64,000 nucleotides of DNA from a virus. Its lineage: Duplodnaviria; Heunggongvirae; Uroviricota; Caudoviricetes. Location: the IMG/VR virus record IMGVR_UViG_3300025000_000058. One strand, given 5' to 3'. A program made the position numbers and the translations under genes. Shown here piece by piece: positions 13,136 through 52,232 of the stretch (position 1 is its first letter; the number at the start of each line of letters is the position of its first letter). The notes beneath the pieces were generated by a model. That model made no database searches and was not told the DNA's origin. It saw nothing but the letters and a program-made list of their open reading frames with translations.

Positions 13136-13164
13136 TTCCTGATAATATACATTATCAATAATAT

Positions 13165-13290: not shown

Positions 13291-13362
13291 GTACTTTACA
13301 CATTGGAAATAATTTCCATCGCCAGGGGATGCCCTAGCACTTAAACCCCGACACTACGTGTC

Positions 13363-13560
13363 GAACTATACAACTATACAACTATACTATTTACTTTATA
13401 CTTACTTTACAATCAATTAACCAACTTCTAACTTCTAACCAACTAACTAACCTCTCAATCAACTAATCACTTAACTATACAACTAAAACTTACCAATGTA
13501 ACATCAAATTATAACATTTAACATTATACCACTTATAAAATAACTAACTAAAAATCAGAT
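13363..13560. repeat. strongly G-depleted (plus strand) low-complexity tract with tandem AACTATAC and AACTTCTA repeats
   Basis: About 190 nt containing only 2 G residues. Includes (AACTATAC)x3 and (AACTTCTA)x2, AACTAACTAACC. The complementary strand is correspondingly C-free. Confidence 0.6.
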
Positions 13561-13860
13561 TAACCACGAAAAATTTTTGGGTTTAAATCACCTGAGAAGG
13601 GAAAATATGCCCTAAAATGACGGTTTTTTTATCGAACTATCTTCCTTTATTTAAAACGAATTATGACTACAACCTTAATAATTATATAAGGTATACAATT
13701 TTCACAACTGATATTTATATTATATCATTAATTAAACTGTCAATCAATTAATTTATTAATAACGGGGGCTATCTTTACACCACACTATACATTATACATA
13801 ATAATAAAATTTCTATCGAAATTTTCTTAGTTTTTTTTCTTGGTGTGATAATATATAGGG

Positions 13861-22194: not shown

Positions 22195-22770
22195 TTATTT
22201 TTTAAAATAGTCGCCATTTTTAATATCTAATAATATTCTTCTTAATTCTCCATAGTATTGATATAATTTTGGATTAACATATTTTATCCACTCTTCTTTA
22301 TTGCCTTCTATTATTAATTTTCTTAATTTTGTTGCACTTATACCATTTTCTATTTGTCTTGGTATAATTAATTGACTTGTTAGTGGAATATCTTCTGGAT
22401 TAAACCATTCATACCTTTTTTCATCATTACCATAAATCATTATTTCTGGAATAGAACCAATATGTTTTGTTATAGTGTCCATTAAGTATTTACCCCACTT
22501 ACCACCCTCAACATCATCTTCATGAGTTAAATCATCTAATGGTAATATATTTAATTTATTATGATAAATTTCTTTTTGGAATACCTCATATATCATACCT
22601 GTTCTTACATAGACATGAAAAGGATTTCTTTCAACTCCTTCTAATTGTGCAGAACCTACAACAACTAAAAATTTATCACACATACTAAGTCCCAAATTAA
22701 TCATTTCTTCATGTTTTATTGTTAACATTTGAAATCTTCCAATGCAAAATCCTGTTTTATATTTTTTCAT
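22195..22770 (-). CDS. natV: nicotinamide-nucleotide adenylyltransferase (NMNAT, NadM/NatV-like)
   Basis: The likely start is MKKYKTGF, with AGGAGG 9 nt upstream. FCIGRFQMLTIKH matches the archaeal/phage NMNAT GRFQPxHxGH nucleotidyltransferase motif, and ISATKLRKLI matches the ISGTxIR motif. Confidence 0.7.
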   Translation of the reverse strand: MKKYKTGFCIGRFQMLTIKHEEMINLGLSMCDKFLVVVGSAQLEGVERNPFHVYVRTGMIYEVFQKEIYHNKLNILPLDDLTHEDDVEGGKWGKYLMDTITKHIGSIPEIMIYGNDEKRYEWFNPEDIPLTSQLIIPRQIENGISATKLRKLIIEGNKEEWIKYVNPKLYQYYGELRRILLDIKNGDYFKK

Positions 22771-23014
22771 TAATATAATCCTCCTTCTATTTAAATTTAT
22801 CATAACAAATATGCCAACCACATATCTTACATGTTGCAGATACTTTTACCCCAGTTTTAAATCTCCAATTATATCTCTTATATTCGTATTCACGTTCTTC
22901 GTATTCCCATTGATGTTTGCAAAAACATGATCTAATATAATTTACAATATTTCTAAATCCCATTATGTTTTATCACCTACTTAATATTTTATATCCTCAA
23001 TTAAGATAAGAGAT

Positions 23015-25902: not shown

Positions 25903-27624
25903 TTATAAGCTACTTAATACTCTGCCTCTGATATCTGCTAAACTATCATCTCTTAATAATTTGCCATCAACAAATACTTCTTCCAGTAAATCATCTGCTC
26001 TAAATAGAGCTTGTTGTGCAATTGATAATCCATCAATATATGTTATTTCATTTGTTGTTGAATCTTGAAGTACAACAACTCTGCCTTTTTGTGATTTTTT
26101 GATTTTGTCGAGATCAGTTTTCGGATTTTTAAAAATCAGTTTTTCTTTTCCATTTATTACTACGTGTGTTGCTTTAATAGCGATCATAAATGTATCTCTA
26201 CTATAATAACCTAGTGAATATGAACCTACACCAAATATAACATTTTCACTAGAAAATCCTTTTTGTTCTAGTTTTTTAAATATTTCTTCTGCTCTTTCTG
26301 GATTGATGCTGTCACCATATATAAGTGAAATATGTGAATCTAATACTTTATATCCTTTAGAATTAATTGTACCACCAAATATATCCCATAGTGATTCTAT
26401 TGAACCTTTTTGTTCTATAGTCAATTCTACTTCTTCACAACTTATTACCTGTGTATAATCAATATAATAATATTGTTTATCATACCTGTTCCATTCAAAT
26501 TCGACAATTATTTTATATATTTTATTATTATATTTGAAATACCCTTCATTTTTATCTACTCCATATTCTCCATGAGGTGTTTCATCTCTTACTTCTTCTT
26601 CTAAATATTCTTTCATCGTTTTAATACAATCATCTAATGTTTTACAATATTTATCATTTGTAAAATCTTCAACAATCACATTACCACAAATAATGTCAAC
26701 TGGATTGCCCGTATCTGGTCTTACGACCAGTTTACCATTTCTATTCATTATAATTTCTTTTAATTTTGGAATAATATTACCAATAACATTCCAATAATCA
26801 TATCCATCTGATACAATACTAACAATACCTTCAGGTACGATTTCAGTAATCATTTTTTTATAATATTTTAAATCATCCTCATATTGGCATTGAATCGAAT
26901 GCTCAGAAGCGAGTACGCTTGAAAATACTAGCTCTTCTTCAACATTGGCATTATAGTAATGCTCTAAATACTGAGTGCTTGGTATAGTATCTGAGCCTGT
27001 GAAATATAGTAAATGTCCTGCCCCTGTTGTTATTGCATCTTCATTGCAACCCATTCCTCTATAACTGAAGTTGTGACATTGCCATTTAATATGTTCTTTA
27101 CTATCGCATGTTTTTTCAGCCCATTTTTCACATATATCTCTATATTTTTTTACTATTGTTGTAGATGTTATTACTTTCCACATTGAAACACTTATAAGTG
27201 TTTCTAAATAATTTGTTAACCAATGAAATTCATTATTAGTATTTTCAATTGTAAACAATGGTGTTTTAATTGGTGCTAAAGTACCTTCTTTAAGAGCACG
27301 TATTTTAATTGGCAAATACCCTAAATCATGTAATGCTTCAATATGCTTAGTATCTGCACAATTATCCCCTAAAGTGTATTTAATAATTCTTTTATATTCT
27401 GTAATTACTTCTTCTTTGTTTCTACTAAAGAAATTTTCATTAAAGTATTCAATCAAATATTCTTTTATAAAACCTTGCAAACCAAAGAATACTACTTCAT
27501 TAATATCTTTTAATCTTGTCCCTCTTGGAGTAAATGTAGAATATGTTTTCTCAATTCCTTTTTCAGTCATAATTCTGTGAGATATTTTATAACAATCTAC
27601 TAATAACATTGGATTATATTTCAT
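25903..27624 (-). CDS. nadV: nicotinamide phosphoribosyltransferase (NAMPT, NadV-like)
   Basis: 573 aa. The N-terminal MLLVDCYKISH and overall length and architecture match NAMPT/PBEF. Conserved GTDT-like and phosphoribosyltransferase regions are present. Confidence 0.85.
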   Translation of the reverse strand: MKYNPMLLVDCYKISHRIMTEKGIEKTYSTFTPRGTRLKDINEVVFFGLQGFIKEYLIEYFNENFFSRNKEEVITEYKRIIKYTLGDNCADTKHIEALHDLGYLPIKIRALKEGTLAPIKTPLFTIENTNNEFHWLTNYLETLISVSMWKVITSTTIVKKYRDICEKWAEKTCDSKEHIKWQCHNFSYRGMGCNEDAITTGAGHLLYFTGSDTIPSTQYLEHYYNANVEEELVFSSVLASEHSIQCQYEDDLKYYKKMITEIVPEGIVSIVSDGYDYWNVIGNIIPKLKEIIMNRNGKLVVRPDTGNPVDIICGNVIVEDFTNDKYCKTLDDCIKTMKEYLEEEVRDETPHGEYGVDKNEGYFKYNNKIYKIIVEFEWNRYDKQYYYIDYTQVISCEEVELTIEQKGSIESLWDIFGGTINSKGYKVLDSHISLIYGDSINPERAEEIFKKLEQKGFSSENVIFGVGSYSLGYYSRDTFMIAIKATHVVINGKEKLIFKNPKTDLDKIKKSQKGRVVVLQDSTTNEITYIDGLSIAQQALFRADDLLEEVFVDGKLLRDDSLADIRGRVLSSL

Positions 27625-30261: not shown

Positions 30262-31098
30262 TTATAATTCAATAATATCAAATATATGCATTTTTTCAAT
30301 TGATATTTTTTCTTTATCTAAAATACTATTTGTAGTAAATACTTTATCAATTAAATCTGTTTGAAACAAATCTCCTTTAAAAATACTATATTCACAATGA
30401 GCAACAAATAAATATACTTCTTTTGCTCCCAATTCTTTTAATTTCTTAGCACTTATAATAAACGTCCCAGCATAACTTGATATATCATCCAAAATAATAA
30501 CTTTAGCATCTTTTATTAAATTAATATCCCCTACAATATCTAATTTATCAATTTTACCTGTGTTGAAGTCTCTTGATTTATACCCCACTAAATATTTAAA
30601 ACCTTTAATATTTTTATGTGCTTTCGCACTTCCATCATCAGGATAAAATAATATATCTTTTTCTTTATCAAATCCAATTTTATTCATTACTTCACCTAAC
30701 AATTCAATTGTTGGGTATACTGCTGTACTTTTATTCAATAAAGCCATTGATACATTAGAATGTGGACTAATGACTACAACACTGTTAAAATTTAATGAAT
30801 TAATAAAATTACAAATATATTTTAAAGTGAATGCTGAAGTTGTTTCATAATACCCTTCAACTCTATCCATTCTTGAGTATGGTAAATATAATATCTTTAA
30901 ATCACAGTCAACTCCTAAATTATTTTCATCTATATAATTTTTAAGAAACATTAATTTGATTAAATCACTTTCATCTTCATATTTAAATGTAATTTCATTA
31001 TTTATATTTATATCTCTCCAAATTTGTTCATTATCTATTCTAATTTCTCCATTAGGGTATTTTTCAAAATTAAGTCTTTCACCATTTAATAAAATCAT
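30262..31098 (-). CDS. prs: ribose-phosphate pyrophosphokinase (PRPP synthetase)-like
   Basis: VIILDDISSYAGTF PRPP-binding loop. Two-domain phosphoribosyltransferase-type architecture of about 280 aa. Confidence 0.65.
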   Translation of the reverse strand: MILLNGERLNFEKYPNGEIRIDNEQIWRDININNEITFKYEDESDLIKLMFLKNYIDENNLGVDCDLKILYLPYSRMDRVEGYYETTSAFTLKYICNFINSLNFNSVVVISPHSNVSMALLNKSTAVYPTIELLGEVMNKIGFDKEKDILFYPDDGSAKAHKNIKGFKYLVGYKSRDFNTGKIDKLDIVGDINLIKDAKVIILDDISSYAGTFIISAKKLKELGAKEVYLFVAHCEYSIFKGDLFQTDLIDKVFTTNSILDKEKISIEKMHIFDIIEL

Positions 31099-31121: not shown

Positions 31122-31514
31122 TTAATCATTATTTACATAATCAGCTACTTGAGATAATGCTTGAAACCATTTACCACCATTCTGCTCTACCATTTTACCT
31201 ACTTCTACCAATGATTTCATTTGTCTTATACTAAAATACACACCTTCGTCTTCTGATAAGATACAGAATAATGTTTTTTCTGGTCTTTTATTAGAATCAT
31301 CTACTACTTCTGCAATACTATATACTCCACTCATTTTAGGTGTAATGACATATAAACAATAATCACAACTTTCTCTTTTTTGTCTTTCTAATTCTTGGCA
31401 TTCAGGAGTCCAATCTTCTACTACTGGATTAAAATAATCAATTTTTAATAAAGATATTAATTGTTCTCTCCATTTACTTTCATTACAAGTCCCACCCAAA
31501 AATATTTCTTTCAT
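31122..31514 (-). CDS. nucleoside 2-deoxyribosyltransferase-like (Rossmann/flavodoxin-like) protein
   Basis: Probable start MKEIFLGGTCNESKW, matching the xIFLAGp...W N-terminus of the nucleoside deoxyribosyltransferase/LOG-like superfamily. GGAGG RBS. Confidence 0.4.
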   Translation of the reverse strand: MKEIFLGGTCNESKWREQLISLLKIDYFNPVVEDWTPECQELERQKRESCDYCLYVITPKMSGVYSIAEVVDDSNKRPEKTLFCILSEDEGVYFSIRQMKSLVEVGKMVEQNGGKWFQALSQVADYVNND

Positions 31515-31573
31515 TTTTCCTCCTTTTAAAAATGGGTGTTTTATTTGCACCCATTTTTATTATTTATATTTAA

Positions 31574-37158: not shown

Positions 37159-39207
37159 TTAAAATTTAATTTTTAATAATCTTTCTGTACTACCTTTAAT
37201 TTTAACTAATAATTCATTCCTTTTGGTTGAACTAAAAGCAATTCCTGATAATTGATCATTTGTATCTTTAACTGTCATTTTACTTCCAAGTGCTTCTGTA
37301 ACTTTTCTATACTGATTTAGTTCTTGATTCAAATATTCATTGAACATTCCATTCGGTTTTTCTGAGTTGCAACAGCCCTTCAGCATGAACATCACATGCT
37401 TATTCCCAATCCCTTGTTGCAAATTCCAGTAATTAGGTGAATAACAAACAACTGATACTGGTACAAATTGATTAGTTTTCAATCCCCATACTTCTTTACT
37501 TGACACATTTGATGGTAATTTTTCTTTAATAGTAAATCCGCTAGTTTTATTAAAATTAACTTCTGCAACTTGTACTTTTTCACCTTGTCTTAATTCTTTA
37601 TTATAATCAAAACTAAATATTTGCCCATCATATTCTACTTCTGCTCTAAACCCATTCTTTCCTCCTCTGTGGCTATAATTATGAACTAAAAACTTATAAA
37701 TACCTTCTTCCATTTTATTTTTACTAGTCCAAGTTATATTCTCAACAGCAGGTTTGTTTCTTGTTGGGTTAATTATATCAACGTCTAATTGTCCAGTAGT
37801 ACTCCTATTTTCTTTATTTCCATAATAAATTAAATTACCGCTAGGCTCGTAACAATGAGCATCTAAATCATTGCCATCAAACTCATTATCATTCCATTGT
37901 ATACTAAATCTTAATACTCCTTCTACATTTCCACCAGCACTTTTTACTCTTTCTTTCATTGAACTATCTGTAATATTTCCAGTGTATGCCCAACTAAAGT
38001 TATTGTCCCATTTGAACATTGTTTTACTGTCTTTATTTTCAGGTGCAATTAGTGATACCATATTGCTACTATGCTTATTCTCTAAAAATACTTCAATTTC
38101 TCTTGCTGCAGGTAATACATTTGCAATAAAATCATCAATAGAGATTTCTGTAACTTTATTAAACTTTTTAGGATTAAAAGGAATACCTTTCGACATTTCA
38201 TCAAAGACATCTAATCCACCTTGTATTTTCTTAGCAGAATCTTTGTTTGAGAACAAAATATTATTTATATTTATATCATTTAGATTAGCAAATCTTCTGT
38301 CTAATGATTCCATATATCCTAATTCAATAATCTTATTTTTAAAATCATTTAACATTTTTTCTGTATACACTGGTTTGGGTCTTTTATAACCATCACCAAC
38401 AATAAATTCAAATTTACCAACTGCTGTATCCAAATCCATATCTTCACTAATATTAGTAAGTAATGTTCCCATCGAATGATTTTTTAACCTACCAATCGCT
38501 CCACCCACTTTTACAGATTGTTCCCATGTATAATTTTCTTTTTCTTCTATTGTTTCTAATTTATCATATTCTTTCTTGTATTTAAGAAATTCTGTTAATA
38601 CACCTTCCCATTCTTTTCCTCGATATAAACTATTTTGAGAAATTAATTCCAATACAGTAAGTAAACTATCTTCTGTAATTTTTTCTAATGAACCTTTAAA
38701 CACATCTCTAGTGCTTCTAAAGATTCCTTTAATTTCACCTTCACTACGATTACTATTATCTACAAATTTTCTATCCAACTCAAGGTAAAAATGTTCCCAT
38801 GTATTAATTTTACCATTTTCTAATTGCTCAAAATTCTTATCTGTACCAATTTTCTTTAACTTACTAACAAACACGTCAGAAACAACATGTGATTTTACAA
38901 ATTTATCTAAAGCATTTACTACTGGTTGAAATGTTTCACTACCAGTTTCAAAATCCCAAATAGTTTTAATTTGATTATCTTTAAGAACAATTACATTTCC
39001 AATATTTTTAATAAAGTATCTACAACATACGCAATCAAATTCTCTAAGCTTTCTATAAATTGGATTATCTTCTGGTTTAAAACTATCGAGGTATAAATTC
39101 CACATATCGTCTTTGTTTAATTCTACTTGAAATAAATGACTAGCATTTTTAGTTAGCTCTTTAAAATTCTTTTGGAATAATTCTTTAAAATATTTAAAAT
39201 TTGACAT
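37159..39207 (-). CDS. large hypothetical protein (682 aa)
   Basis: Longest uncharacterised ORF in the window. No motif I can name. Confidence 0.5.
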   Translation of the reverse strand: MSNFKYFKELFQKNFKELTKNASHLFQVELNKDDMWNLYLDSFKPEDNPIYRKLREFDCVCCRYFIKNIGNVIVLKDNQIKTIWDFETGSETFQPVVNALDKFVKSHVVSDVFVSKLKKIGTDKNFEQLENGKINTWEHFYLELDRKFVDNSNRSEGEIKGIFRSTRDVFKGSLEKITEDSLLTVLELISQNSLYRGKEWEGVLTEFLKYKKEYDKLETIEEKENYTWEQSVKVGGAIGRLKNHSMGTLLTNISEDMDLDTAVGKFEFIVGDGYKRPKPVYTEKMLNDFKNKIIELGYMESLDRRFANLNDININNILFSNKDSAKKIQGGLDVFDEMSKGIPFNPKKFNKVTEISIDDFIANVLPAAREIEVFLENKHSSNMVSLIAPENKDSKTMFKWDNNFSWAYTGNITDSSMKERVKSAGGNVEGVLRFSIQWNDNEFDGNDLDAHCYEPSGNLIYYGNKENRSTTGQLDVDIINPTRNKPAVENITWTSKNKMEEGIYKFLVHNYSHRGGKNGFRAEVEYDGQIFSFDYNKELRQGEKVQVAEVNFNKTSGFTIKEKLPSNVSSKEVWGLKTNQFVPVSVVCYSPNYWNLQQGIGNKHVMFMLKGCCNSEKPNGMFNEYLNQELNQYRKVTEALGSKMTVKDTNDQLSGIAFSSTKRNELLVKIKGSTERLLKIKF

Positions 39208-39819: not shown

Positions 39820-40182
39820 TTAATCAGTTATTGACTCATGTACAAAATCACTGCAAACCATATTTCTACATGATTTGCAACATACCAATGCTGGGGTAAA
39901 TGAACATATTGGTATAATACTGCATTCATCTGAATCATATTTAAAACATTCTTTACAGCATCTTGGAATTAATTTTTCTCTATATTCTTGTTCTATAGGT
40001 TTTTTATAATCATCTAATACTTTTTTAATTTTACAATTATCAGAATGTCCTTCTTTTTCGGACATATGACAATATGGGCAATTATAATTTTCTTGATAAC
40101 CATTATAAGCAGTACCACTCTCGTATAAGCAAAATTCTAATTCAGTAATTAAATCATAAAATTCTTTTTCTTTATTAGTCAA
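39820..40182 (-). CDS. Cys-rich (multi-CxxC) protein
   Basis: CPYC, CCKEC and CKSC motifs. 120 aa. Confidence 0.4.
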   Translation of the reverse strand: MTNKEKEFYDLITELEFCLYESGTAYNGYQENYNCPYCHMSEKEGHSDNCKIKKVLDDYKKPIEQEYREKLIPRCCKECFKYDSDECSIIPICSFTPALVCCKSCRNMVCSDFVHESITD

Positions 40183-41608: not shown

Positions 41609-42061
41609 CTAAATTATTTTCCCTGTATCTCTTAACTTCATTAATCTACTACAAAATTCTTGCTCTGTTAATACTGTATGTGATTCATCATTTTTTCCAC
41701 ATGAATGTCTCAATACAGCATTCCTTGTTGAATTTAATGCTCTTCTAAATCCTAAATTTTGGTTATATAATTCTTGATATGCTCTATCTAATAATTCTTG
41801 ATATTTTTTTGAATGTCTGTCATAGGTTACGCCTTGCCAATATAATTTTTGTTCTTTCCACCATTTTTTATTTTTACCTTTATATTTAGCTGGTAAACCA
41901 CTTAATGAGCAAACATATTTCTGTATTTCAATATCTGAAAATTTAAAGCTTTGTAATAGCCCTTCCATTCCAGCAACTTCAATATTATCAAAAATAAATT
42001 TATTGTGTGCAAAGTTGCTTAATTTTGAAGCAGGGTATCCCATACCGCTTTTAATATCCAT
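41609..42061 (-). CDS. NADAR-domain (YbiA-like N-glycosidase) protein
   Basis: GYPASKLSNFAHNKFIFDNIEVAGMEGLLQSFKF matches the NADAR N-terminal signature (F..G..LSNF ... E..xQAxKF). 150 aa. Confidence 0.6.
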   Translation of the reverse strand: MDIKSGMGYPASKLSNFAHNKFIFDNIEVAGMEGLLQSFKFSDIEIQKYVCSLSGLPAKYKGKNKKWWKEQKLYWQGVTYDRHSKKYQELLDRAYQELYNQNLGFRRALNSTRNAVLRHSCGKNDESHTVLTEQEFCSRLMKLRDTGKII

Positions 42062-42083
42062 TTATATTAACCTCCCTTATATT

Positions 42084-42455
42084 TTAACAATAACAAGATT
42101 CTCTATCTATTTTATCTAACTTATCTTTATCAATAATTAAATTAACTTCTAATCCCAATATATTTCTTAAATCAAAATCTTTTTTCCTATCAAATTTACT
42201 TCCCCAATATCCTACTTCTTTTGCTTGTAAATATATTCTATTTTCATCGCTTATTACTCTTATACTTATTATTTGAAAATAATGTTCTTTATTTTCATAA
42301 TTAATACTTAATTTACTATTAATTGTTATATTTTCTTCAGTTACAATATTAATAATAGTCCCCAATTTATCTTGAATTTCTGCTCCTATTATTTTAAATG
42401 TATTCATATTATTTATCCCCTTTACTTTTTTATAATAATCGTAATCCTTTAACAA
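42084..42455 (-). CDS. hypothetical protein
   Basis: 123-aa ORF. Confidence 0.4.
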   Translation of the reverse strand: MLKDYDYYKKVKGINNMNTFKIIGAEIQDKLGTIINIVTEENITINSKLSINYENKEHYFQIISIRVISDENRIYLQAKEVGYWGSKFDRKKDFDLRNILGLEVNLIIDKDKLDKIDRESCYC

Positions 42456-42999
42456 ACATTTTAGCTTGCTCCCTTTTCATTGGCTTTAAACCAATTGCTG
42501 TAATACTACCCTTTGGCACTTCAGTTAATCCATTATCTCTTACACTATAAAAATCATATGGGAATTTATTTAATAATTTTTCTATTGTTTTTGTATTTGC
42601 TTTTAATACAATTTTTTTCATCCCATTGTCAACCCATTCACTATATACTAAATCTTCACGCTCTCTCCAATTACTAGGTATGTCAATTGTTGTTAATGTA
42701 TTTATATGTCCTACTGATACTGCTATTTTTCCAACACTCATATTTAAATCCGTATTAACAATATAATATTGAAGTACTTCTTGATTTCTCCTATATTCTT
42801 CATCAATCTTTGTTGATTTTTTTTCATCTTCAAAATATGCATTACAAAGTAATCTCAATACTTCCATTCCCTCAATTCCTGTTACTACTTTACTTTCTAA
42901 TTTAACTACTCCATCTTCTTTTATACATCTTCCTAATTGTCCTACTTTTTGAGAAGTATTGTATTTACAAAGCATCCAATCACAAATAATTTCTGGCAT
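42430..42999 (-). CDS. PTH2-family peptidyl-tRNA hydrolase domain protein with N-terminal Cys-containing extension
   Basis: VNTDLNMSVGKIAVSVGH aligns with PTH2 TDLGMGKGKIAAQCSHA, and VRDNGLTEVPKGSITAIGLKP aligns with TDAGRTQIAPGSQTVLGIGP. Confidence 0.6.
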   Translation of the reverse strand: MPEIICDWMLCKYNTSQKVGQLGRCIKEDGVVKLESKVVTGIEGMEVLRLLCNAYFEDEKKSTKIDEEYRRNQEVLQYYIVNTDLNMSVGKIAVSVGHINTLTTIDIPSNWREREDLVYSEWVDNGMKKIVLKANTKTIEKLLNKFPYDFYSVRDNGLTEVPKGSITAIGLKPMKREQAKMFVKGLRLL

Positions 43000-43019: not shown

Positions 43020-43640
43020 TTAATAATCAAATCCATAATCTATTTCATCATTTATTAATAATCGTTTTGCTTTATATTTTTTTAATATATTAACTTCCAT
43101 ACATCCTAATATACCTTCATAACCACAATAATTGCAATAAAAACCTATTTTAAAAATATCATTAACTACTGAAGGACTTTTTGTTCCACATACAGGACAA
43201 TATTTTATTGTTGGTTTACATATACCACTTCTCATTTTATACTCATAATCATAACTATTTACTTTTTTAAACAATTTATCAATCCAATCATTTTTTATAT
43301 CTTCTTCACGACAACTTACTAATACGTCATCTTTTATAATATCATCAAAATGCCTTGTAACATAATCCAATGCTTCTTTTTCTATTTTACATAATATACA
43401 CATCATTATTTTACAAGATTTATTTGTTTGTTTTTTACAATTTAAACATATACAATGCTTGCAAGCTTTAAATTTTCTTTCTAATTTTCTTAATTGTTCA
43501 ACTTCAACTAATATAAGCTCGTTATCAATACTAATATATCCTAATTTGTCATTTTTTATATTATAACAAATAAATACTCCTCTCTTATTATTAAATTCTA
43601 TTAAATCATTTTCTTTAAAATATAATTTTTTTATTATCAT
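43020..43640 (-). CDS. Cys-rich protein with several zinc ribbons
   Basis: CKHCICLNC, CILC, CPVCG and CNYCG. 206 aa. Confidence 0.4.
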   Translation of the reverse strand: MIIKKLYFKENDLIEFNNKRGVFICYNIKNDKLGYISIDNELILVEVEQLRKLERKFKACKHCICLNCKKQTNKSCKIMMCILCKIEKEALDYVTRHFDDIIKDDVLVSCREEDIKNDWIDKLFKKVNSYDYEYKMRSGICKPTIKYCPVCGTKSPSVVNDIFKIGFYCNYCGYEGILGCMEVNILKKYKAKRLLINDEIDYGFDY

Positions 43641-43659: not shown

Positions 43660-45636
43660 TTATTTTAACAAGCTCATAAATTGCTGTTCATTAATTATAA
43701 TACTATTCTTACTTTCTTCTGCTTTTTTCAACGTACCTCCTGGCTTATCTCCGACAATAACATAATTTACTTTTTTATTAAAACTCTTACTAAACACTCC
43801 ACCATTTGTAACAATTAATTCTTCAAAATATTTTCTTGGTTGTGATAACACTCCAGTTATTGTAAATACTAAACCTTCAATTCTACTATCACTTTTTATA
43901 TTGTTCTTTATCTTGTTTTCTTCATTATTAAATCTTAAATATTTTAATATCGCATATAATTGTAATAAATTATTTTGATTATTAAAATATTCATTTATAG
44001 ATCGTGCTGTTTCTATTCCTATGTCTTCAACATCTAATAATATATTTATTTTTGCATTAACAATATAATTAATATCGTTATTGAAATAATTGCATAATTT
44101 CTTAGCTGTAGTAATGCCAACATGATTTATACCAAGACCATAAATCAATCTATATAATTCCGTATCTTTTGATTTTTCAATTGATTTTAATATTTTATTG
44201 TAAGATTTCTCTCCAAACCCCTCTAACCAAAGTATTTCTTCTTTATATTGTTCAAGATTATATACGTCTGCAAACTCTGCAATAAAACCTTCTTCAACAA
44301 ATTTACTTATTGTAGCATCAGCAAGTCCTTTAATATTTAAAGCATCTTTCTCAATAAAATGACTTATTTTGTCTACTAATTTACCAAAGCAATTATTATT
44401 AGTGCATACCAATACAGTTGCTTCCTTCAACAATTTAAATTCTACATTATATCCACAATCAGGACAAAACTTTGGAAATTCAATTGTATTACTTCTTGTT
44501 AGATTGTCTTCTATTTTAGGAATTATAGAACCACGTTTACTAATTATAACAGTATCTCCATATCCTAATTGTAATTTTTTAATATAGTCTATATTATGCA
44601 ATGTAGCACGTTCTACTATTGTTCCATCAATCTCAATTGGTTCAAAGTGTCCTGTAGGATTTACAAAACCCCCTCTTGACGTATTCCATAATATATCAAT
44701 TAATTTTGTTTCATATACATCATCTTGAAATTTAAATGCAATTGCATCTAATGGATATTTACTTGTTTTTCCTAGTGATTCTGAATAAGCAATATCATTA
44801 TATTGAATCACGACTCCATCGTAACTAATACCTTTATCTTCTGCAATTTTTTTAACTTCATCAATACATTTTTCAGCATTAAATATCCATCCATTTGTTA
44901 TAATTATACTGGGTGCAGTTTGAAATCCTAATTCTAACAACCATTCTAATTGCTGTGTTTTTGTAGTAAATTTCATACCTTCAACAACTGATATTTTAAA
45001 TGCACGAAAATGTAGCTTTCTTTCTGCACATTTTCTACTGTCTAAATTTTTTACACTTCCTGATGCCAAATTTCTAGCAGTTTTATATTTTTCATTTTCA
45101 GAAAGACCCTCATTAATTTCTTCAAAATCTTTTAAATATATGTATGATTCACCTGCTATTTCCAAATATCCTTTAAATGGTATTTTTAAAGGCACATTTT
45201 TATATGTTCTAATATTATGCGTAATATCTTCTTGTCCTCTTGTTGAAGCTTCAATAAGAATACCATTATTATATTTAATATTTGTTGTAAGTCCATCTAT
45301 TTTTAAACTAGCATAACTTTCTTTTCCTTTAATAAATTCTTCAACACCTTTAATTGTCTTTTCTTTCTTTAAAGATATTAAGGGAATTGTATGTTTAACT
45401 TTTTTAAATTCATCAATCATTTCATAGTTAACTTTTTGCGTTGGGCTATTGCATAATACAAAATCCAATTTTTTCTCCAACATTTCTAATTCTTCATATA
45501 ATAAATCAAATTCTTTATCACTCATAATAGGTTGTGCTAAAGCATAATAACTAAAACAAGCGTTGTTTAATAGTTCAACTAAATATTTTATTCTTTCTTT
45601 TTTTATTGTTCTATCTTTATTTGTCATCTGTGTCAT
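43660..45636 (-). CDS. ligA: NAD+-dependent DNA ligase (LigA)
   Basis: Ia domain (YYALAQPIMSDKEFD), adenylation motif I KIDGLT, Cys4 zinc finger CPDCG...CTNNNC, HhH region and C-terminal BRCT (ITGVLS...VIVGDKPG). 658 aa. Confidence 0.9.
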   Translation of the reverse strand: MTQMTNKDRTIKKERIKYLVELLNNACFSYYALAQPIMSDKEFDLLYEELEMLEKKLDFVLCNSPTQKVNYEMIDEFKKVKHTIPLISLKKEKTIKGVEEFIKGKESYASLKIDGLTTNIKYNNGILIEASTRGQEDITHNIRTYKNVPLKIPFKGYLEIAGESYIYLKDFEEINEGLSENEKYKTARNLASGSVKNLDSRKCAERKLHFRAFKISVVEGMKFTTKTQQLEWLLELGFQTAPSIIITNGWIFNAEKCIDEVKKIAEDKGISYDGVVIQYNDIAYSESLGKTSKYPLDAIAFKFQDDVYETKLIDILWNTSRGGFVNPTGHFEPIEIDGTIVERATLHNIDYIKKLQLGYGDTVIISKRGSIIPKIEDNLTRSNTIEFPKFCPDCGYNVEFKLLKEATVLVCTNNNCFGKLVDKISHFIEKDALNIKGLADATISKFVEEGFIAEFADVYNLEQYKEEILWLEGFGEKSYNKILKSIEKSKDTELYRLIYGLGINHVGITTAKKLCNYFNNDINYIVNAKINILLDVEDIGIETARSINEYFNNQNNLLQLYAILKYLRFNNEENKIKNNIKSDSRIEGLVFTITGVLSQPRKYFEELIVTNGGVFSKSFNKKVNYVIVGDKPGGTLKKAEESKNSIIINEQQFMSLLK

Positions 45637-45639: not shown

Positions 45640-45888
45640 TTAATCCTCCTTTTTATCACAATTACTACGATAAAAACAATCGTCACAATTATATTTTTCG
45701 CAAATATCTAAAGGACATTCATCATCACTGCATATACAATATCCTTTTTCATCACATCCTGGTTCTTCAATACCTTCACAATATAATTGGCATTTACCTG
45801 TATAAAAATCTACATATCTACAACTCATTATATATTCTCCTTCGTTGAATAATAACGCTAGTTGTTTATTACTAGCGTTATATTTCAT
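45640..45888 (-). CDS. Cys-rich small protein
   Basis: 13 Cys in 82 aa. Confidence 0.4.
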   Translation of the reverse strand: MKYNASNKQLALLFNEGEYIMSCRYVDFYTGKCQLYCEGIEEPGCDEKGYCICSDDECPLDICEKYNCDDCFYRSNCDKKED

Positions 45889-48177: not shown

Positions 48178-48837
48178 CTAATATTTATATAACCATTTCC
48201 ACCAACCAGTATTACTTGCCATATTTAAACATTCCCATTTACATTTATCATATTGTCCTTTTATATTTACATGATAATGACCAAAATAGTATTTTCTTAT
48301 ACTCGGATACATTTCTAATATTCTTGACAATGCAACTCTACTACAATCTTTATGTTTTTGAGTATCTTTGAATCTATCTCCTAAATCAAATTCTAATGGA
48401 CATGTATGTGATATTACGATATCTATTTTTGTATTTGTTGAGGGAAGATTCTCAAAATCTTTTTGCGATATAACTTCTTGCGGAAACCAGTCTACTCCAA
48501 TTGTTCTTGTATTTTTATCAATTGATTCAGCACCACCCATAAACAGTACAACTTTCCCATTGGGAAGAGTTAATGTAGAACCACGTTTCATATAAAATAT
48601 ATTTGGTGCAATTTCATTATTTGTAAGAGTATTTAAATAATCATGGTGTTCATGATTTCCATCTGCAAAATATATTTTACAATCACCGTTTTTAATTTTA
48701 TCTAAAGAACATTCTTTATGATATGGCCATATTCCAAAGTCTCCACATTGTAATATAATATCTGGTTTTTTCTTATTTATTAAAGTATTTAATTTATTCC
48801 ATTCTGCATGAATATCTCCAACAATTATTAATTTCAT
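48178..48837 (-). CDS. calcineurin-like metallophosphoesterase
   Basis: MKLIIVGDIHAEW (motif I GDxHG), QCGDFG (GDxxDRG-like) and GNHEHHD (GNHE). Confidence 0.75.
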   Translation of the reverse strand: MKLIIVGDIHAEWNKLNTLINKKKPDIILQCGDFGIWPYHKECSLDKIKNGDCKIYFADGNHEHHDYLNTLTNNEIAPNIFYMKRGSTLTLPNGKVVLFMGGAESIDKNTRTIGVDWFPQEVISQKDFENLPSTNTKIDIVISHTCPLEFDLGDRFKDTQKHKDCSRVALSRILEMYPSIRKYYFGHYHVNIKGQYDKCKWECLNMASNTGWWKWLYKY

Positions 48838-48853
48838 TTATTCATTTCTCCTT

Positions 48854-49444
48854 TTAATTAAATAATTCATAATTATTTTCTAATTTTCCATCTCCAACAA
48901 TAAATATTTTACTTCCACAATCATATAAACAATCACTAATTTCTTTTATATTTAAAGATATAATATAATCATAATAACTACTTTTTACCCTTATAAATCT
49001 CATTGTTTCATATCCTCTTTTTATCCTAATTACTAAATTATAAAATTTATAAGCTTCTCTAATAACAATTGCATTGTCATTCATTTTTAATCTTTTAATT
49101 TTCTTTTGAATAAAATTGAATTGTTTTCTATTTTCTTTAATATCTTCATCATCCCAATATTTTGTTTTCTTAAAATCTGCTCCATCAACATCAATAACTC
49201 TAATAGCATCAAAATGGTAAGGAAAATTTTTATCATAACCTTTACATGTTTCACAAAAATGACTTGTGATAAATAAATCATTTATTCCCCATTGAGTATA
49301 TAGCTCTTGATATATTTTATTAATAATACTTAATGGAATTTTCTTTTTTGTTGAAGTTTCAATATTATACCCATAATTTTTACCTGCATAATCAACAAAC
49401 CATTTTATAAACTTATTAAAGTATATTCTTTCAAATCTTGTCAT
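48854..49444 (-). CDS. hypothetical protein
   Basis: 196-aa ORF lying between the phosphatase and the ligase-like gene. Confidence 0.4.
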   Translation of the reverse strand: MTRFERIYFNKFIKWFVDYAGKNYGYNIETSTKKKIPLSIINKIYQELYTQWGINDLFITSHFCETCKGYDKNFPYHFDAIRVIDVDGADFKKTKYWDDEDIKENRKQFNFIQKKIKRLKMNDNAIVIREAYKFYNLVIRIKRGYETMRFIRVKSSYYDYIISLNIKEISDCLYDCGSKIFIVGDGKLENNYELFN

Positions 49445-49567
49445 TGTTTTTACTCTCCTTTTTATTTGATTTATTAAGTAATTTTTAATTCATTTTTAAT
49501 TAAAGCATTATTTTTCCAATGAATATCTGTTTGCACATGATTTTTTCTAACATACTTAACAACTGAT

Positions 49568-50119
49568 TTATAAAAAATCATCTACAATAAAACTGTCTTT
49601 TATTCTAATTACATATCCTTCTTGTAAGCCACCGCATTTACTTATCCCTGTAAACAAGTTTTTAATAATATCTATATTATATATTCCTTCATACAAAATA
49701 GGAACAGTTTGTAAATTTAATAATTCACACCATTCTAATGTTTCTTCCCACGACAAACAACAATCATTTTCCCATATTGAAAATACTAATAAATATGATA
49801 GCAATTCATTATAACGAATACTATGCTTAGCATATAAATTTTCACCACAAACTCTATAATTTTCAGGTATATCATGTTTTATTATGCTATGTAGTTTTTT
49901 AATTGCATGTTGTGATATATGATTTTTACTGTTTATTGAACGAGCATGGTAATAATTAAAATATAAATTTGTATTTTCACCATCCATTTTTTCTGTTACT
50001 ACAATCTCTTTGTTATAAAAATTAGATAAATCATATAATACTTTATCATCAGATGATATTCCTTCTGACCAAGGTAAATGTAATGTTCTAGGATATTTAT
50101 ATAGTTTCATAATGCTCAT
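49568..50119 (-). CDS. RNA-ligase-like covalent nucleotidyltransferase (minimal, NTase domain only)
   Basis: YKYPRTLHL followed by VVTEKMDGEN (motif I KxDGxN) and GLQEGYVIRIKD (motif IV EGYV plus K). 183 aa. Confidence 0.5.
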   Translation of the reverse strand: MSIMKLYKYPRTLHLPWSEGISSDDKVLYDLSNFYNKEIVVTEKMDGENTNLYFNYYHARSINSKNHISQHAIKKLHSIIKHDIPENYRVCGENLYAKHSIRYNELLSYLLVFSIWENDCCLSWEETLEWCELLNLQTVPILYEGIYNIDIIKNLFTGISKCGGLQEGYVIRIKDSFIVDDFL

Positions 50120-50122
50120 TCC

Positions 50123-50485
50123 TTATTCTTTTTTACTTTTACACTCATATTCAACACATTTCCCTAATCTTCTACTTATAATCTCTCTTAAAAACTTTTG
50201 CTCCCAATCCATAAACCCAATTGGGTGCTTTGTTAATTCACAATATTTATTCACAGCTATTTCATGCTCATTAAATATAAAACATATTTCATCAATAGAC
50301 AATTCACCTCTGGATACTAGCACTCTTAGTGCTTGAATGATATTATTTGTTGATACTTTTATAATTATATCTCTATTATTTTGTTCAATTTTCTTTTTAT
50401 ATTGGTCTATTATAAACTGTGCATTTTCAAGAAGATTAAAATCTGAATATGGATTACCTTGTTCACAATATATAATTTTTAGCAT
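50123..50485 (-). CDS. hypothetical protein
   Basis: 120-aa ORF. Confidence 0.4.
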   Translation of the reverse strand: MLKIIYCEQGNPYSDFNLLENAQFIIDQYKKKIEQNNRDIIIKVSTNNIIQALRVLVSRGELSIDEICFIFNEHEIAVNKYCELTKHPIGFMDWEQKFLREIISRRLGKCVEYECKSKKE

Positions 50486-50502
50486 AATTTTTTATCTCCT
50501 TT

Positions 50503-51444
50503 TTAAAAATTAACATAATCTCCACCATTTTCTATTTTACTTTGCAATGGCTTATAATATCTTTCTATTGTTGTATTTATATTACTATGTCCTACAAAAC
50601 GCTGAACTACTTCAATTGGTGCTTTATTCATTAGCATCTGAGTAACACACGTTTTCCTAAGTGTATGAGGACTAACATCTTCAATTTCAACTTTTTTACA
50701 CCACTTCTTTAATATTTTAGACACATTATCCGCTGTCATTGGAAATAATAAATCATTTGATACTCCAAACTCTCCTCTCTTATCAAAATAATCCTTTAAC
50801 AATTTCATTAATTCTGTATTTACTTTTATACTTCTTGCTTTTCTTCCTTTGGCTTTAACAATGGTTAAATAATAACAGCCAATCATTTCATCATAATTAA
50901 AATCATTCATTCTAACATTAATCATTTCACTTCTTCGGAGTCCAAAATTCAATAAACATTTAATAAGTAAATATTCTGATTGTTTATTTCCTTGTTTAAC
51001 CATATCTAATAACTTTTCAACTTCTTCTTTACTCAAAGCTCTGCCAGAATCAACATCATTCTTATCAAGATTTAAAAACATATGTTCTTTAACAACTTCA
51101 TTTCCAAAAGGATTTATTTTAACATCATTATTAATTGCCATTGTGTATTTATAAAATGAATTTAAAGTTGAAATACGATTTCTTATTGTGTTACTGCTTG
51201 CCCCTTTGTCAACCATCTCATTAATAAAATTTTCTATATTTAAGATACCAATTTCTTTAACCATATCAATTGTAATGTGTTCAAGATGATTTACTTTAAA
51301 AAATACCTTTAGTGTTTGAGAATATGATCTTTTTGTTTCAGCACTTTTAAATCTGTTAATGAATCTTCCTCCAATATCTTGATTTATTTTATCTTGATTT
51401 AATGTAATAACTTTGTTTAAGGCTGTATTCATTTGTGTTTGCAT
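50503..51444 (-). CDS. int: tyrosine recombinase/integrase
   Basis: Catalytic box GLRRSE...HTLRKTCVTQ...VGHSNINTTIERYY carries the R..H-x-x-R..Y signature. 313 aa. Confidence 0.85.
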   Translation of the reverse strand: MQTQMNTALNKVITLNQDKINQDIGGRFINRFKSAETKRSYSQTLKVFFKVNHLEHITIDMVKEIGILNIENFINEMVDKGASSNTIRNRISTLNSFYKYTMAINNDVKINPFGNEVVKEHMFLNLDKNDVDSGRALSKEEVEKLLDMVKQGNKQSEYLLIKCLLNFGLRRSEMINVRMNDFNYDEMIGCYYLTIVKAKGRKARSIKVNTELMKLLKDYFDKRGEFGVSNDLLFPMTADNVSKILKKWCKKVEIEDVSPHTLRKTCVTQMLMNKAPIEVVQRFVGHSNINTTIERYYKPLQSKIENGGDYVNF

Positions 51445-51461
51445 TTATAAAACCTCCATTC

Positions 51462-52232
51462 TTAAAATACATATCTATCTATATAATTTCTATCTTGAGT
51501 AAATATAGGAATTTCCTTATCTATAATCCATCTAGTTCTCATTGTACCTTCTTTGTCATATTGTTCTTTAATAACACAACTACCACGTTTCTGATAGGCA
51601 GGAAAATCATTAAAATTAATACCTTTCTCTTGAAAAAGCATTTCTTGTATTTGATTACAATTTTTATTTTGTAATTGTTTATGACTAAACTTTGCACTGC
51701 CAACCATTTGAATAGCATTTCTTGTAGCGTCTTGTTGTCTCCAAATAAATGCGTTGCATACTTCTTCTTTTGGAATATTAAATACTCTTGAATCAAATAA
51801 AGCGGTGTTAAATCTTTTTTGATAAATATCAACATAATCTGATATATCTTCTAAATCAATTTCATCATATATATTTCTAAATATTTTATTAAATGCTAAT
51901 GTTGCCATACTAGCAGACACAGATACCATTTTTTGTACATTATAATTAAACCATCCTTGTGTTTCAATTGTATCATAATCTGTCATTAACAATGTTATTT
52001 CATCACTCTGAGTATATGCTAATTTACAACCTTGTATGTTTTCGCATAAATACTTTGCTGTCTCTTGCATTGTAGCAATCATAATTTCATCAAATGGCTT
52101 TTGAAATCCTTTAGTAAATGTGTGAAATGACTTTCCATCAATTCTTACTAGCACTGGTACATTATTTAATATATAATTTCTATTTACATTTTCATAATTT
52201 TTCATGCGACTTCCAAGTGCATCATTTTTCAT
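51462..52232 (-). CDS. Thg1-like tRNA-His guanylyltransferase family 3'-5' nucleotidyltransferase
   Basis: VPVLVRIDGKSFHTFTKGFQKPFDE and AYTQSDEITLL match the Thg1 palm-domain motifs (RxDGxxFxxF, SDE). Confidence 0.8.
   Translation of the reverse strand: MKNDALGSRMKNYENVNRNYILNNVPVLVRIDGKSFHTFTKGFQKPFDEIMIATMQETAKYLCENIQGCKLAYTQSDEITLLMTDYDTIETQGWFNYNVQKMVSVSASMATLAFNKIFRNIYDEIDLEDISDYVDIYQKRFNTALFDSRVFNIPKEEVCNAFIWRQQDATRNAIQMVGSAKFSHKQLQNKNCNQIQEMLFQEKGINFNDFPAYQKRGSCVIKEQYDKEGTMRTRWIIDKEIPIFTQDRNYIDRYVF

Follow-up and report, generated by a model that had tools for sequence, protein, structure and literature searches.

A gp30.3/AdfN-type NADAR protein and a Cys4-PTH2 fusion encoded behind LigA in a low-GC groundwater phage

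Gene content around LigA

The DNA analysed here, a stretch of 64,000 nucleotides termed the window (IMG/VR record IMGVR_UViG_3300025000_000058), stems from a groundwater phage or plasmid-prophage of ~25% GC and up to 174 kb that is not T4-like. No close DNA relative of the window was detected among sequenced phages. Its minus strand holds the ORFs for a NADAR protein, a predicted peptidyl-tRNA hydrolase of the PTH2 type and the NAD+-dependent DNA ligase LigA, each where the initial annotation had placed it and each with family matches far beyond chance. LigA (658 aa, minus strand, 43660-45636; phrog_3869, E=3e-167) lies near both other genes, as had been stated, and is complete, with Nlig-Ia, adenylation, OB, Zn, HhH and BRCT domains recognized by Pfam. 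It is the first gene of a tightly spaced co-directional string, in which the intergenic gaps from LigA down to the NADAR gene measure 19-22 nt. No terminator-like site was found on the coding strand inside this LigA-NADAR string, and a promoter scan was uninformative (55 hits observed, 55.7 expected).

The order LigA, Cys-rich protein, PTH2, small ORF, NADAR is common to two lineages, that of the window and a sister lineage with a PTH2 identity of 69-71%. The Cys-rich protein (206 aa, minus strand, 43020-43640, function unassigned) occupies the interval between LigA and PTH2 in both of them and ends in a zinc-ribbon-like CPVC...CNYC motif; its only matches, to Lar-like proteins and PD-T4-2_B, were all sub-threshold. 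PTH2 and NADAR are separated by a single gene and not, as initially annotated, by a distance of two genes. This intervening ORF (107 aa, minus strand, 42084-42407, function unassigned) is a gene call in metagenome contigs, has a counterpart of 141 aa in the sister lineage and yielded no match in Pfam, PHROG, NCBIfam or PADLOC.

Pfam, PHROGs and the translations further identified a set of RNA-repair-type genes on the minus strand, comprising a metallophosphoesterase (48178-48837), an RNA ligase with a KxDG motif (49568-50119) and a Thg1-like 3'-5' polymerase (51462-52232). This set (48178-52232) is interrupted by a tyrosine recombinase (minus strand, 50503-51444) and is located 5-9 kb upstream of PTH2, not adjacent to it. 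NAD+ salvage is represented on the same strand by NAMPT (25903-27624), a PRPP-synthetase-like protein (30262-31098) and a weakly matching cytidylyltransferase-like protein that is possibly an NMNAT (22195-22821), all assigned by Pfam and 11-20 kb from the NADAR gene. Besides the tyrosine recombinase, the genome encodes a RecD2-type helicase and a protein with a weak DnaD-like match, and LigA replaces an ATP-dependent ligase. A MazF-like gene, sought because MazF and PTH2 occur in proximity elsewhere, is absent from the window.

The NADAR protein belongs to the gp30.3/AdfN family

The 150-aa product of the minus-strand gene at 41609-42061 contains the segments GYPASKLSNF...LQSFKF, in which the initial annotation had recognized a NADAR signature. 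This assignment is upheld by a match far beyond chance to the Pfam model PF08010 (Phage_30_3; E=1.5e-50, 171 bits against a cutoff of 36, profile positions 1-138 of 138), and phrog_652 is matched as well. The model describes the gp30.3 family and not NADAR proteins in general; PF08010 was found in every one of the 523 homologous clusters. Over its full length the protein is 39% identical to T-even gp30.3, and Glu33 and Lys40 align to Glu36 and Lys43 of the T4 protein, both of which are needed for activity according to mutant analysis (PMC11257639). Together with His119, these residues are invariant across 37 homologues. His119 (VLRHS) aligns to the T-even VLKHS motif; a His in the last strand is the marker of the gp30.3 subfamily, whereas YbiA carries Glu and DarT1-linked NADARs carry Asp at this position (PMC11125620). 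The RB69 allele is inactive owing to loss of the C-terminal helix (PMC11257639/PMC11825919). In the window protein this helix is intact, with the alignment reaching residue 151 of the 152 in the T-even protein and residues 133-146 helical in the model.

The AF2 model of the protein (pLDDT 95.1, pTM 0.90) was compared with the PDB by Foldseek, a check proposed in the initial annotation, and the best three structures were all NADARs: YbiA (2b3w; E 1.1e-5, TM 0.66), the Phytophthora NADAR (8bau) and the Geobacter NADAR (8bat). Beyond these three, nothing scored below E=4. The best match of the sequence profile to PDB entries was likewise YbiA, at E=0.088 only. By family, fold and catalytic residues, the 150-aa protein is thus a NADAR of the gp30.3/AdfN type.

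T4 gp30.3 is AdfN, which removes ADP-ribose from DNA guanine and defeats DarTG1, as demonstrated by experiments in 2024-25 (PMC11257639/PMC11825919; PMC11125620). The counter-defence against DarTG that had been considered plausible for the window is therefore already established for the family. The statement that neither function had been described for such phage loci does not hold, as AdfN has been demonstrated and phage PTH2 has been annotated and discussed (PMC7824862). As a clear Phage_30_3 member whose function is known from T4 AdfN, the NADAR protein is not new. By analogy with AdfN, we infer that it has the same activity and the same role against DarTG1. T4 AdfN performs best on the hydroxymethylated DNA of T-even phages and leaves uninfected cells unprotected from DarT1 toxicity (PMC11257639/PMC11825919; PMC11125620), and the specificity of the window NADAR may hence differ.

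Pfam and PADLOC detected no DarT (DUF4433), ART or Macro partner among the neighbouring genes or the window ORFs of at least 100 aa, which makes the NADAR an orphan. A toxin hidden among the unannotated neighbours was considered and discarded, as the only matches, to PDC-M42C (E=0.0023) and PD-T4-2_B (E=0.0034), were weak.

A PTH2 domain with a four-cysteine extension

The gene at 42430-42999 (minus strand) encodes 189 residues including GKIAVSVGH and DNGLTEVPKGSITAIGLKP, and in both lineages its ATG at 42999 is preceded by the Shine-Dalgarno sequence AAAGGAGAA. The initial reading of the product as PTH2 with a Cys-containing N-terminal domain proved correct: residues 1-~73 are an extension, and residues 74-189 (42433-42780) represent the predicted peptidyl-tRNA hydrolase domain. 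PF01981 matches residues 77-189 (E=3.4e-19; 69.6 bits, cutoff 23) and is covered from position 3 to its end at position 115. A search of PDB sequences returned seven solved Pth2 or Bit1 chains with E-values from 7.5e-12 to 2e-3, the archaeal Pth2 structures lying between 8e-12 and 2e-7. In an alignment of five phage-derived sequences, those of the window and its sister among them, with three solved Pth2 proteins, Lys91, His98, Asp155, Gly157 and Thr167 are invariant between phage and archaeal enzymes. Lys91 and Asp155 coincide with Lys18 and Asp86 of Sulfolobus solfataricus Pth2, which Fromant et al. reportedly described in 2005 as active-site residues. The domain is under purifying selection (dN/dS 0.34), and its C-terminal 64 residues are nearly identical in the two lineages.

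The conserved Gln following the catalytic Lys is replaced by Ser95 in the window lineage, and the NCBIfam equivalog cutoffs are missed for both NF003314 (61.2 versus 126 bits) and TIGR00283 (51.6 versus 82 bits). Judged by these scores, the domain is a divergent member of the family and not an equivalog of archaeal Pth2, and its substrate may not be canonical peptidyl-tRNA. Contrary to the initial view that a phage PTH2 would be unusual, such proteins form the PHROG family phrog_1866 and are annotated in Bacillus phage G, in Clostridioides difficile phiCD211-like phages and in an Enterococcus phage. Phage PTH2 is rare, with earlier annotations in several large phages and a function that is predicted. 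For jumbo phages, a part in ribosome rescue has been discussed for it, jointly with Thg1 and RNA repair (PMC7824862).

In several phages, genes for RNA ligases, MazF-type RNases or NAD salvage are found close to PTH2. PTH2 lies ~1 kb from RtcB in phiCD211; other viral loci place it near a T4-type RNA ligase, an AAA_33 kinase, YqeY or MazF-like RNases, and in one further locus NAMPT and PRPP synthetase are 1 kb away.

The extension consists of a Cys4 mini-domain (residues 1-~55, minus strand, 42835-42999) with invariant Cys6, Trp8, Cys11, Asn14, Ser16, Gly23, Cys25 and Cys52, followed by a variable acidic linker (minus strand, 42781-42834). The mini-domain is under purifying selection, the dN/dS value being 0.37 for the Cys4 core and 0.79 for the linker. 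Its conserved residues are shared by P0003 and by four standalone proteins of 55-78 aa, the latter found at E 3e-6 to 4e-4 among 1.84 billion proteins searched. These standalone proteins are not located beside PTH2 and instead sit among small early-type genes of other phage-like contigs, so that the idea of a split gene was dropped. None of the six family members matched a PDB sequence, and their sole Pfam match, to DUF3081 in one member (E=0.054), is spurious. The DUF1540 pattern, which we take to be C-x4-C-x-[YH]-N, had made that family a candidate identity; it is unsupported, as no Pfam family matched the Cys4 domain of the window even at E<=10. AF2 prediction of the entire fusion from a two-sequence alignment gave a pLDDT of 48.7, with values below 50 across residues 1-75. 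The mini-domain is absent from 19 GenBank and 32 IMG/VR copies of phage PTH2, and no close relative of the fusion was found in IMG/VR; among these sequences it is joined to PTH2 only in the window lineage. The Cys4-PTH2 fusion is real and under selection, and it is the sole new part of the locus.

Separate enzymes or a linked module

The connection between NADAR, PTH2 and LigA that was implied by the initial annotation is not supported. The adjacency of NADAR and PTH2 was seen just in the window lineage and its 69-71%-identical sister; none of 32 other viral PTH2 loci has an AdfN-like gene within 8 kb, and no PTH2 or ligase neighbour was present at the other AdfN-like loci inspected. Linkage of AdfN to a ligase exists in RB32/T4 but was rejected as a rule, as no sign of it was seen within 5 kb in Citrobacter phage NM4.3 or at two metagenomic AdfN-like loci. 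Because the adjacency is lineage-specific, NADAR and PTH2 are best regarded as early accessory genes that are separate from each other, although the gene order kept between the two lineages leaves room for a functional link.

We therefore favour, with a probability of roughly 0.6, a model in which two independent accessory enzymes, serving counter-defence or maintenance, have come by chance to lie in one co-directional string behind LigA, NADAR being directed against a DarT1-like enzyme and PTH2 serving tRNA recycling. The Glu33/Lys40/His119 centre of NADAR would hydrolyse the N-glycosidic bond that attaches ADP-ribose to guanine. If a DarT1-like ADP-ribosyltransferase of the host marks replicating phage DNA, NADAR would clear the adducts and allow phage replication and ligation by LigA to go on. 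PTH2 would cleave the ester bond that joins tRNA to a peptide or an N-acyl amino acid and thus return tRNA to the pool when phage translation is stalled or attacked, in cooperation with the Thg1-like enzyme, RNA ligase and phosphoesterase whose genes lie upstream. The same role for PTH2 has been proposed in a survey of jumbo phages (PMC7824862). The presence of RNA-repair-type genes 5-9 kb upstream would fit an action of PTH2 against tRNA-directed toxins. For the Cys4 mini-domain, the likeliest role is that of a metal-binding adaptor, which would either steer PTH2 to a partner (the ribosome, tRNA or a factor of the host) or regulate the enzyme; the substrate and role of PTH2, like metal binding by Cys4, are predictions.

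Instead of DarT-modified DNA, NADAR might alternatively have small derivatives of ADP-ribose, or by-products of NAD+-dependent reactions, as its substrates and form part of an NAD+ economy with LigA, NAMPT and PRPP synthetase. The window does encode the NAD+-consuming LigA together with NAMPT and a PRPP-synthetase-like protein, comparative surveys suggested soluble ADPr substrates for phage NADARs, which they noted in the vicinity of NAD+ salvage genes, and PTH2 itself neighbours NAMPT and PRPP synthetase in the other viral locus mentioned above. We nevertheless regard this role as unlikely, given that all tested NADARs of the gp30.3 type or otherwise distinct from YbiA hydrolyse ADP-ribosyl-guanine on nucleic acid, that the salvage genes are 11-20 kb distant and that T4 AdfN is both required and sufficient to overcome DarTG1 (PMC11257639/PMC11825919; PMC11125620). 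A different assignment has been weighed for PTH2, namely that it detoxifies N-acetyl-aminoacyl-tRNAs produced by GNAT-type toxins of the host (TacT/AtaT/ItaT-like) as an orphan antidote, and is not a general recycler of peptidyl-tRNA. Bacterial Pth hydrolyses the N-acetyl-aminoacyl-tRNA made by TacT-type toxins, PTH2 has the same ester-hydrolase chemistry and the phage carries further genes of the counter-defence type. Elsewhere, however, phage PTH2 has RNA ligases and RNases as neighbours, which speaks for damage by nucleases and not for acetylation; the gene context gives no hint of GNAT toxins, and the literature retrieved does not document an anti-phage role of tRNA-acetylating GNAT toxins; we consider this antidote function doubtful. 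The PTH2 domain could even have been repurposed, with Cys4 retargeting it to a non-tRNA ester or to binding only, so that PTH2 would be a mere fold label. Scores under the equivalog cutoffs, the lineage-specific Gln-to-Ser exchange beside the catalytic Lys and the fact that two unrelated types of Cys4 module have been fused to the N-terminus of phage PTH2 agree with such a change of function, but retention of all five invariant active-site positions, purifying selection on the domain and the near identity of its C-terminal 64 residues in two lineages render it very improbable.

The tight co-directional spacing of 19-22 nt and the order kept in the sister lineage could also indicate that NADAR, PTH2 and the two unassigned neighbours protect tRNA or RNA in concert, NADAR stripping tRNA or rRNA guanosines of ADP-ribose added by an RNA-targeting ADP-ribosyltransferase and PTH2 releasing the peptidyl-tRNAs that accumulate on ribosomes stalled by this modification. 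The T4 NADAR and others strip ADP-ribose from RNA guanosine in vitro, and RNA-repair genes are encoded in the same window. Yet on RNA the T4 enzyme is weaker than a DarT1-linked NADAR, the two genes are adjacent in a single lineage only, and at none of the 32 other viral PTH2 loci or the AdfN-like loci inspected, and we know of no anti-phage defence system that ADP-ribosylates RNA guanosine; a joint function of this kind seems highly unlikely. Still more speculative, and the least probable proposal considered here, is a single module of LigA, Cys-rich protein, Cys4-PTH2, small ORF and NADAR against a host ADP-ribosyltransferase that hits RNA or tRNA as well as DNA. NADAR would then clean tRNA and rRNA guanosines, and Cys4 would anchor PTH2 to ribosomes that have stalled, so that the tRNAs trapped there could be released. 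If true, this would be the first viral link of nucleic-acid de-ADP-ribosylation with ribosome rescue.

The NADAR gene adds little: it carries the AdfN anti-DarT family, defined by experiment in T4-like coliphages, into a low-GC groundwater phage unrelated to them, a distribution suggesting that phages are widely threatened by guanine ADP-ribosylation of their DNA. The PTH2 half is the more useful one, as the roles of phage PTH2 have so far been predicted. Four-cysteine modules have become attached to phage PTH2 at least twice, which points to targeted and not bulk tRNA recycling. The Cys4 domain constitutes a compact, uncharacterised phage protein family, and its partner could reveal how phages sustain translation under attack.

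Relation to known systems

The window NADAR resembles T4 gp30.3 in length (150 versus 152 aa), catalytic Glu and Lys, subfamily His and NADAR fold, its end-to-end identity rising from 39% with T-even proteins to up to 59% with Moonvirus copies. As in T-even phages, it is an orphan without a DarT partner, and a few genes separate it from the DNA ligase. Unlike in T4, its genome is not T4-like, its activity is a prediction and LigA stands where T4-like phages have an ATP-dependent ligase. With the antitoxin NADAR of the DarG1 type from Geobacter lovleyi (PDB 8bat) it shares the fold and the predicted de-ADP-ribosylation of guanine. It differs from DarT1-linked NADARs in having no adjacent DarT and His instead of Asp at the catalytic position of the last strand, and the N-terminal extension of DarT-linked NADARs is missing.

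Like archaeal and eukaryotic Pth2 (S. solfataricus, 1xty; T. acidophilum, 1rlk), the PTH2 protein has a full-length PF01981 domain with conserved Lys, His, Asp-x-Gly and Thr, and like the phrog_1866 proteins Bacillus phage G gp325 and phiCD211 PHICD211_20100 it is encoded by a large phage that also carries RNA-repair genes. From all of these it is set apart by the ~73-residue Cys4 extension, Ser in place of Gln and sub-equivalog scores. A further large low-GC phage, IMGVR_UViG_3300029959_000005, encodes a second, unfused PTH2 near its LigA. Its 174-aa protein at locus L026 likewise combines an N-terminal four-cysteine module with PTH2; this module, however, is a CPNC...CPNC zinc ribbon unrelated to the Cys4 domain of the window, so that fusion to PTH2 arose independently in the two phages.

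The LigA-NADAR gene string

Five minus-strand ORFs separated by 19-22 nt encode, in order, LigA (658 aa, 45636-43660), a Cys-rich protein (206 aa, 43640-43020), the PTH2 protein (189 aa, 42999-42430), a small product (107 aa according to the metagenome contig calls, 42407-42084) and the NADAR protein (150 aa, 42061-41609). The positions and motifs that the initial annotation had reported for the PTH2 and NADAR genes are correct. No terminator-like sites on the coding strand were found inside this string, and a promoter scan gave hits at background level only. In a metagenome contig that belongs to this phage (L009 1890-3866), LigA is divided into two ORFs of 234 and 383 aa with a gap of ~120 nt, owing perhaps to pseudogenization, a small insertion or misassembly.

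The window has a GC content of ~25% and minus-strand genes up to ~52 kb. It derives from groundwater metagenomes, where contigs of the same phage reach 174 kb, and its DNA or protein links with cultured phages are few, involving Clostridium phage c-st and the C. difficile phiCD211 group. A strongly conserved 682-aa protein (37159-39207; phrog_1735, PF26675 DUF8224) is common to phiCD211-like phages and is also retained in the sister lineage, a second metagenomic lineage. Between 9230 and 14060, ~4.8 kb without an ORF of at least 100 aa are AT-rich with GC skew near zero and carry dense degenerate direct repeats, among them a 16/32-nt array of 12 or more copies (12100-12560), a 65-nt repeat (11230-11400) and recurring 51-62-nt units with a TTGACA...TATTAT box. 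This region matched nothing in Rfam, tRNA or phage blastn searches and could serve a plasmid-like prophage as its replication origin, iteron or partition region. Genes of NAD+ salvage type, detected with Pfam, encode NAMPT (25903-27624), a PRPP-synthetase-like protein (30262-31098) and a weakly matching cytidylyltransferase-like protein (22195-22821, possibly NMNAT); interspersed with them are genes for a nucleoside 2-deoxyribosyltransferase-like protein (31122-31550), a GIY-YIG protein, an HNH endonuclease and an N6/N4 DNA methylase, and the set presumably resembles those that phages use for NAD+ reconstitution. The window also encodes an Amidoligase_2 protein (919-2388) as well as a GGACT/AIG2-like gamma-glutamyl cyclotransferase, a pairing known from predicted peptide-tagging or modification systems.

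The NADAR protein

The NADAR protein covers the whole Pfam profile Phage_30_3 (PF08010, E=1.5e-50), also matches phrog_652 and is 39% identical end to end to the T-even protein. T4 gene 30.3, now renamed adfN, is necessary and sufficient for T-even resistance to DarTG1, as determined by phage crosses, deletion and complementation; purified T4 AdfN strips ADP-ribose from DNA, the mutations E36A and K43A abolish this activity, and the RB69 allele is inactive through loss of the C-terminal helix (PMC11257639, the same work as Nat Commun 2025, PMC11825919). An independent study found that the T4 protein hydrolyses guanine-ADPr and identified a His in the last strand as subfamily marker, the position being Glu in YbiA and Asp in DarT1-linked NADARs (PMC11125620). 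In the window protein, E33 and K40 align with T-even E36 and K43, and H119 with the subfamily His; all three are invariant across 37 homologues, and the C-terminal helix is present. The AlphaFold model built on these 37 homologues has a pLDDT of 95, and with it Foldseek retrieved from the PDB, as its top three matches, exactly the three NADAR structures: YbiA (2b3w, E 1e-5) and the Phytophthora (8bau) and Geobacter (8bat) proteins. The domain call of the initial annotation is thereby borne out. Profile match, residues, C-terminal helix and predicted fold together establish family membership, so that the protein is of the AdfN/gp30.3 type on every feature testable in silico.

No DarT gene, and no gene for another ADP-ribosyltransferase, a Macro or a Nudix protein, was detected in the neighbourhood or in any window ORF of at least 100 aa; the NADAR gene is therefore an orphan, as AdfN is. 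In GenBank, 1,510 phage records contain homologues; nearly all of these phages are T4-like, and identity is highest in Moonvirus, at up to 59%. Homologues are also present in more than 500 metagenomic clusters, among them an 86-kb contig that is not T4-like and an Armatimonadetes contig of 1.36 Mb, in both of which NADAR is likewise an orphan. The Armatimonadetes gene (L023 6001-6462), from a metagenome-assembled genome, encodes a gp30.3-type NADAR 58% identical to that of the window and directly follows an ABC-transporter ATPase gene, where neither a prophage nor a DarT context is obvious; its position on a large bacterial contig implies that the 'phage' subfamily is not restricted to phages. 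The window genome itself is not T4-like; it encodes a tyrosine recombinase, a RecD2-type helicase, PhoH and LigA and gives weak DnaD-like matches. The AdfN-like clade thus now reaches outside T4-like phages, a modest addition to the 2024-25 papers.

The PTH2 protein and its N-terminal extension

Residues 77-189 of the PTH2 protein match PF01981 (E=3.4e-19) and solved Pth2 structures (archaeal, the 127-aa entry 24bt and human Bit1), which upholds the second domain call. When the protein is aligned with four further phage PTH2s and three enzymes of solved structure, every sequence shares K91, H98, D155, G157 and T167. Of these, K91 and D155 correspond to K18 and D86 in S. solfataricus Pth2, presumably the catalytic residues there. 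Because the protein scores below the NCBIfam equivalog cutoffs and has Ser95 where its relatives have a conserved Gln, it is classed by sequence as a divergent family member. Its C-terminal ~64 residues are near-identical between the lineages (42433-42620 against 4680-4864 of the sister locus L002), the remainder being ~55-60% identical as estimated from the pairwise alignment, a pattern that points either to very strong constraint or to a patch acquired by recent recombination.

Alignments with all other phage PTH2 copies begin only near residue 73. The preceding extension is real, since in both the window and the sister lineage a strong Shine-Dalgarno sequence, AAAGGAGAA, lies upstream of the ATG at 42999, and dN/dS is ~0.37 over the first 36 codons and ~0.34 over the PTH2 domain, compared with 0.79 in the relaxed linker, which also varies in length. 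With residues 1-76 as query, HMMER was run exhaustively against 1.84 billion representatives; apart from the fusion and its sister, it retrieved only four proteins, all standalone and 55-78 aa long (E 3e-6 to 4e-4). C6, W8, C11, N14, S16, G23, C25 and C52 are invariant in this alignment, and the domain looks like a putative Cys4 metal-binding mini-domain, with no match in Pfam or the PDB. The standalone genes belong to other phage-like contigs, where small genes of early type surround them, and none adjoins PTH2. A structure model of the whole fusion reached a pLDDT of only 49 because sequence depth is too low.

The 94-kb IMG/VR viral contig 3300029959_000005 carries two PTH2 genes, one unfused and 2.4 kb from LigA (L025 7992-8330), the other encoding a 174-aa protein with an N-terminal CPNC...CPNC zinc ribbon (L026 7806-8330). 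Like the window protein, the latter joins a small N-terminal Cys4 module to a phage PTH2, but the two modules are unrelated; such a fusion has thus arisen at least twice, which we read as evidence that the hydrolase is targeted or regulated. Tandem PTH2 duplicates also occur at three further loci (L035, L036 and L037). A 297-aa protein from a 1856-nt JGI contig (P0002), which matches the Cys4-PTH2 protein exactly over its first 131 residues and then continues into a LacI-type periplasmic-binding-like domain, is most likely an assembly chimera rather than a real architecture. Small or medium Cys-rich proteins with CxxC or CC clusters and no family match are encoded at 39820-40182, 43020-43640 and 45640-45888; together with the Cys4 domain, they suggest that the phage encodes many small, putatively metal-binding proteins.

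Linkage and proposed roles

LigA, the Cys-rich protein, PTH2, the small ORF and NADAR follow one another in the sister lineage as well, where PTH2 is 69-71% identical, but conservation of this order stops there. By tblastn and profile search, 0 of 32 IMG/VR PTH2 loci have an AdfN-like gene or the N-terminal domain within 8 kb; no annotated NADAR lies within 5-6 kb of PTH2 in phiCD211, Enterococcus phage EF1 or Bacillus phage G, and no PTH2 was seen at the AdfN-like loci inspected. Elsewhere PTH2 is accompanied by RtcB (~1 kb away in phiCD211), LigA (2-3 kb, two further diverged lineages), NAMPT and PRPP synthetase (1 kb, one lineage), a T4 Rnl1-type RNA ligase, an AAA_33 kinase or YqeY. MazF is the commonest Pfam family among these neighbours: in four groundwater viral contigs, probably related, a MazF/NdoA-like (PemK) endoribonuclease gene lies 0.7-2 kb downstream of PTH2 (L026 9129-9548, L028 3389-3781, L030 9186-9602 and L034 10410-10808), followed a few kb beyond by a longer MazF fusion of ~266-275 aa (13006-13809, 5564-6364, 12322-13125 and 14990-15817, respectively). 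The window has no MazF-like gene. It does encode, 5-9 kb upstream of PTH2 on the same strand, a metallophosphoesterase, a KxDG RNA ligase and a Thg1-like 3'-5' polymerase. This RNA-repair-type set (48178-52232) is interrupted by a tyrosine recombinase (50503-51444) and includes a 196-aa product without any match (48854-49444) and a 120-aa product whose sole match is an unknown-function PHROG (50123-50485). No tRNA genes were found anywhere in the window.

We read NADAR and PTH2 as independent genes. From family, predicted fold and conserved residues, and by analogy with homologues, in which alone the activity has been shown, we infer that the NADAR would clear the ADP-ribose that a host DarT1-like enzyme attaches to guanine in phage DNA. 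That it instead serves NAD metabolism, acting on soluble ADP-ribose derivatives, remains an alternative weakened by all enzymology to date. A combined RNA-directed module of both proteins would be allowed by the activity of the T4 NADAR on RNA, but the absence of such linkage elsewhere counts against it.

Acting independently, the PTH2 domain, judged by its conserved residues, probably frees tRNA for reuse from its peptidyl- or N-acyl-aminoacyl forms when translation stalls or comes under attack, and would thereby complement the RNA heal-and-seal enzymes, with the Cys4 domain as a probable adaptor. Counteraction of GNAT toxins and repurposing of the domain remain as alternatives to this role. 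We found no experimental study of any phage PTH2 in the literature.

The domain calls of the initial annotation stand and its interpretation is supported in part, but the novelty is much lower than it had claimed. PTH2 makes up phrog_1866, and GenBank has it in 19 phage records, from phages of Enterococcus and Aeromonas, Bacillus phage G and phiCD211-like C. difficile phages; a number of these copies are annotated as peptidyl-tRNA hydrolase. In their survey of jumbo phages, Iyer et al. regarded PTH2, together with Thg1, as probably contributing ribosome rescue to RNA-repair systems (PMC7824862). The NADAR type, in turn, has been characterized experimentally through T4 AdfN. The NADAR protein is thus a new member of an experimentally characterized family, whereas the PTH2 protein brings a new architecture to a phage family already catalogued.
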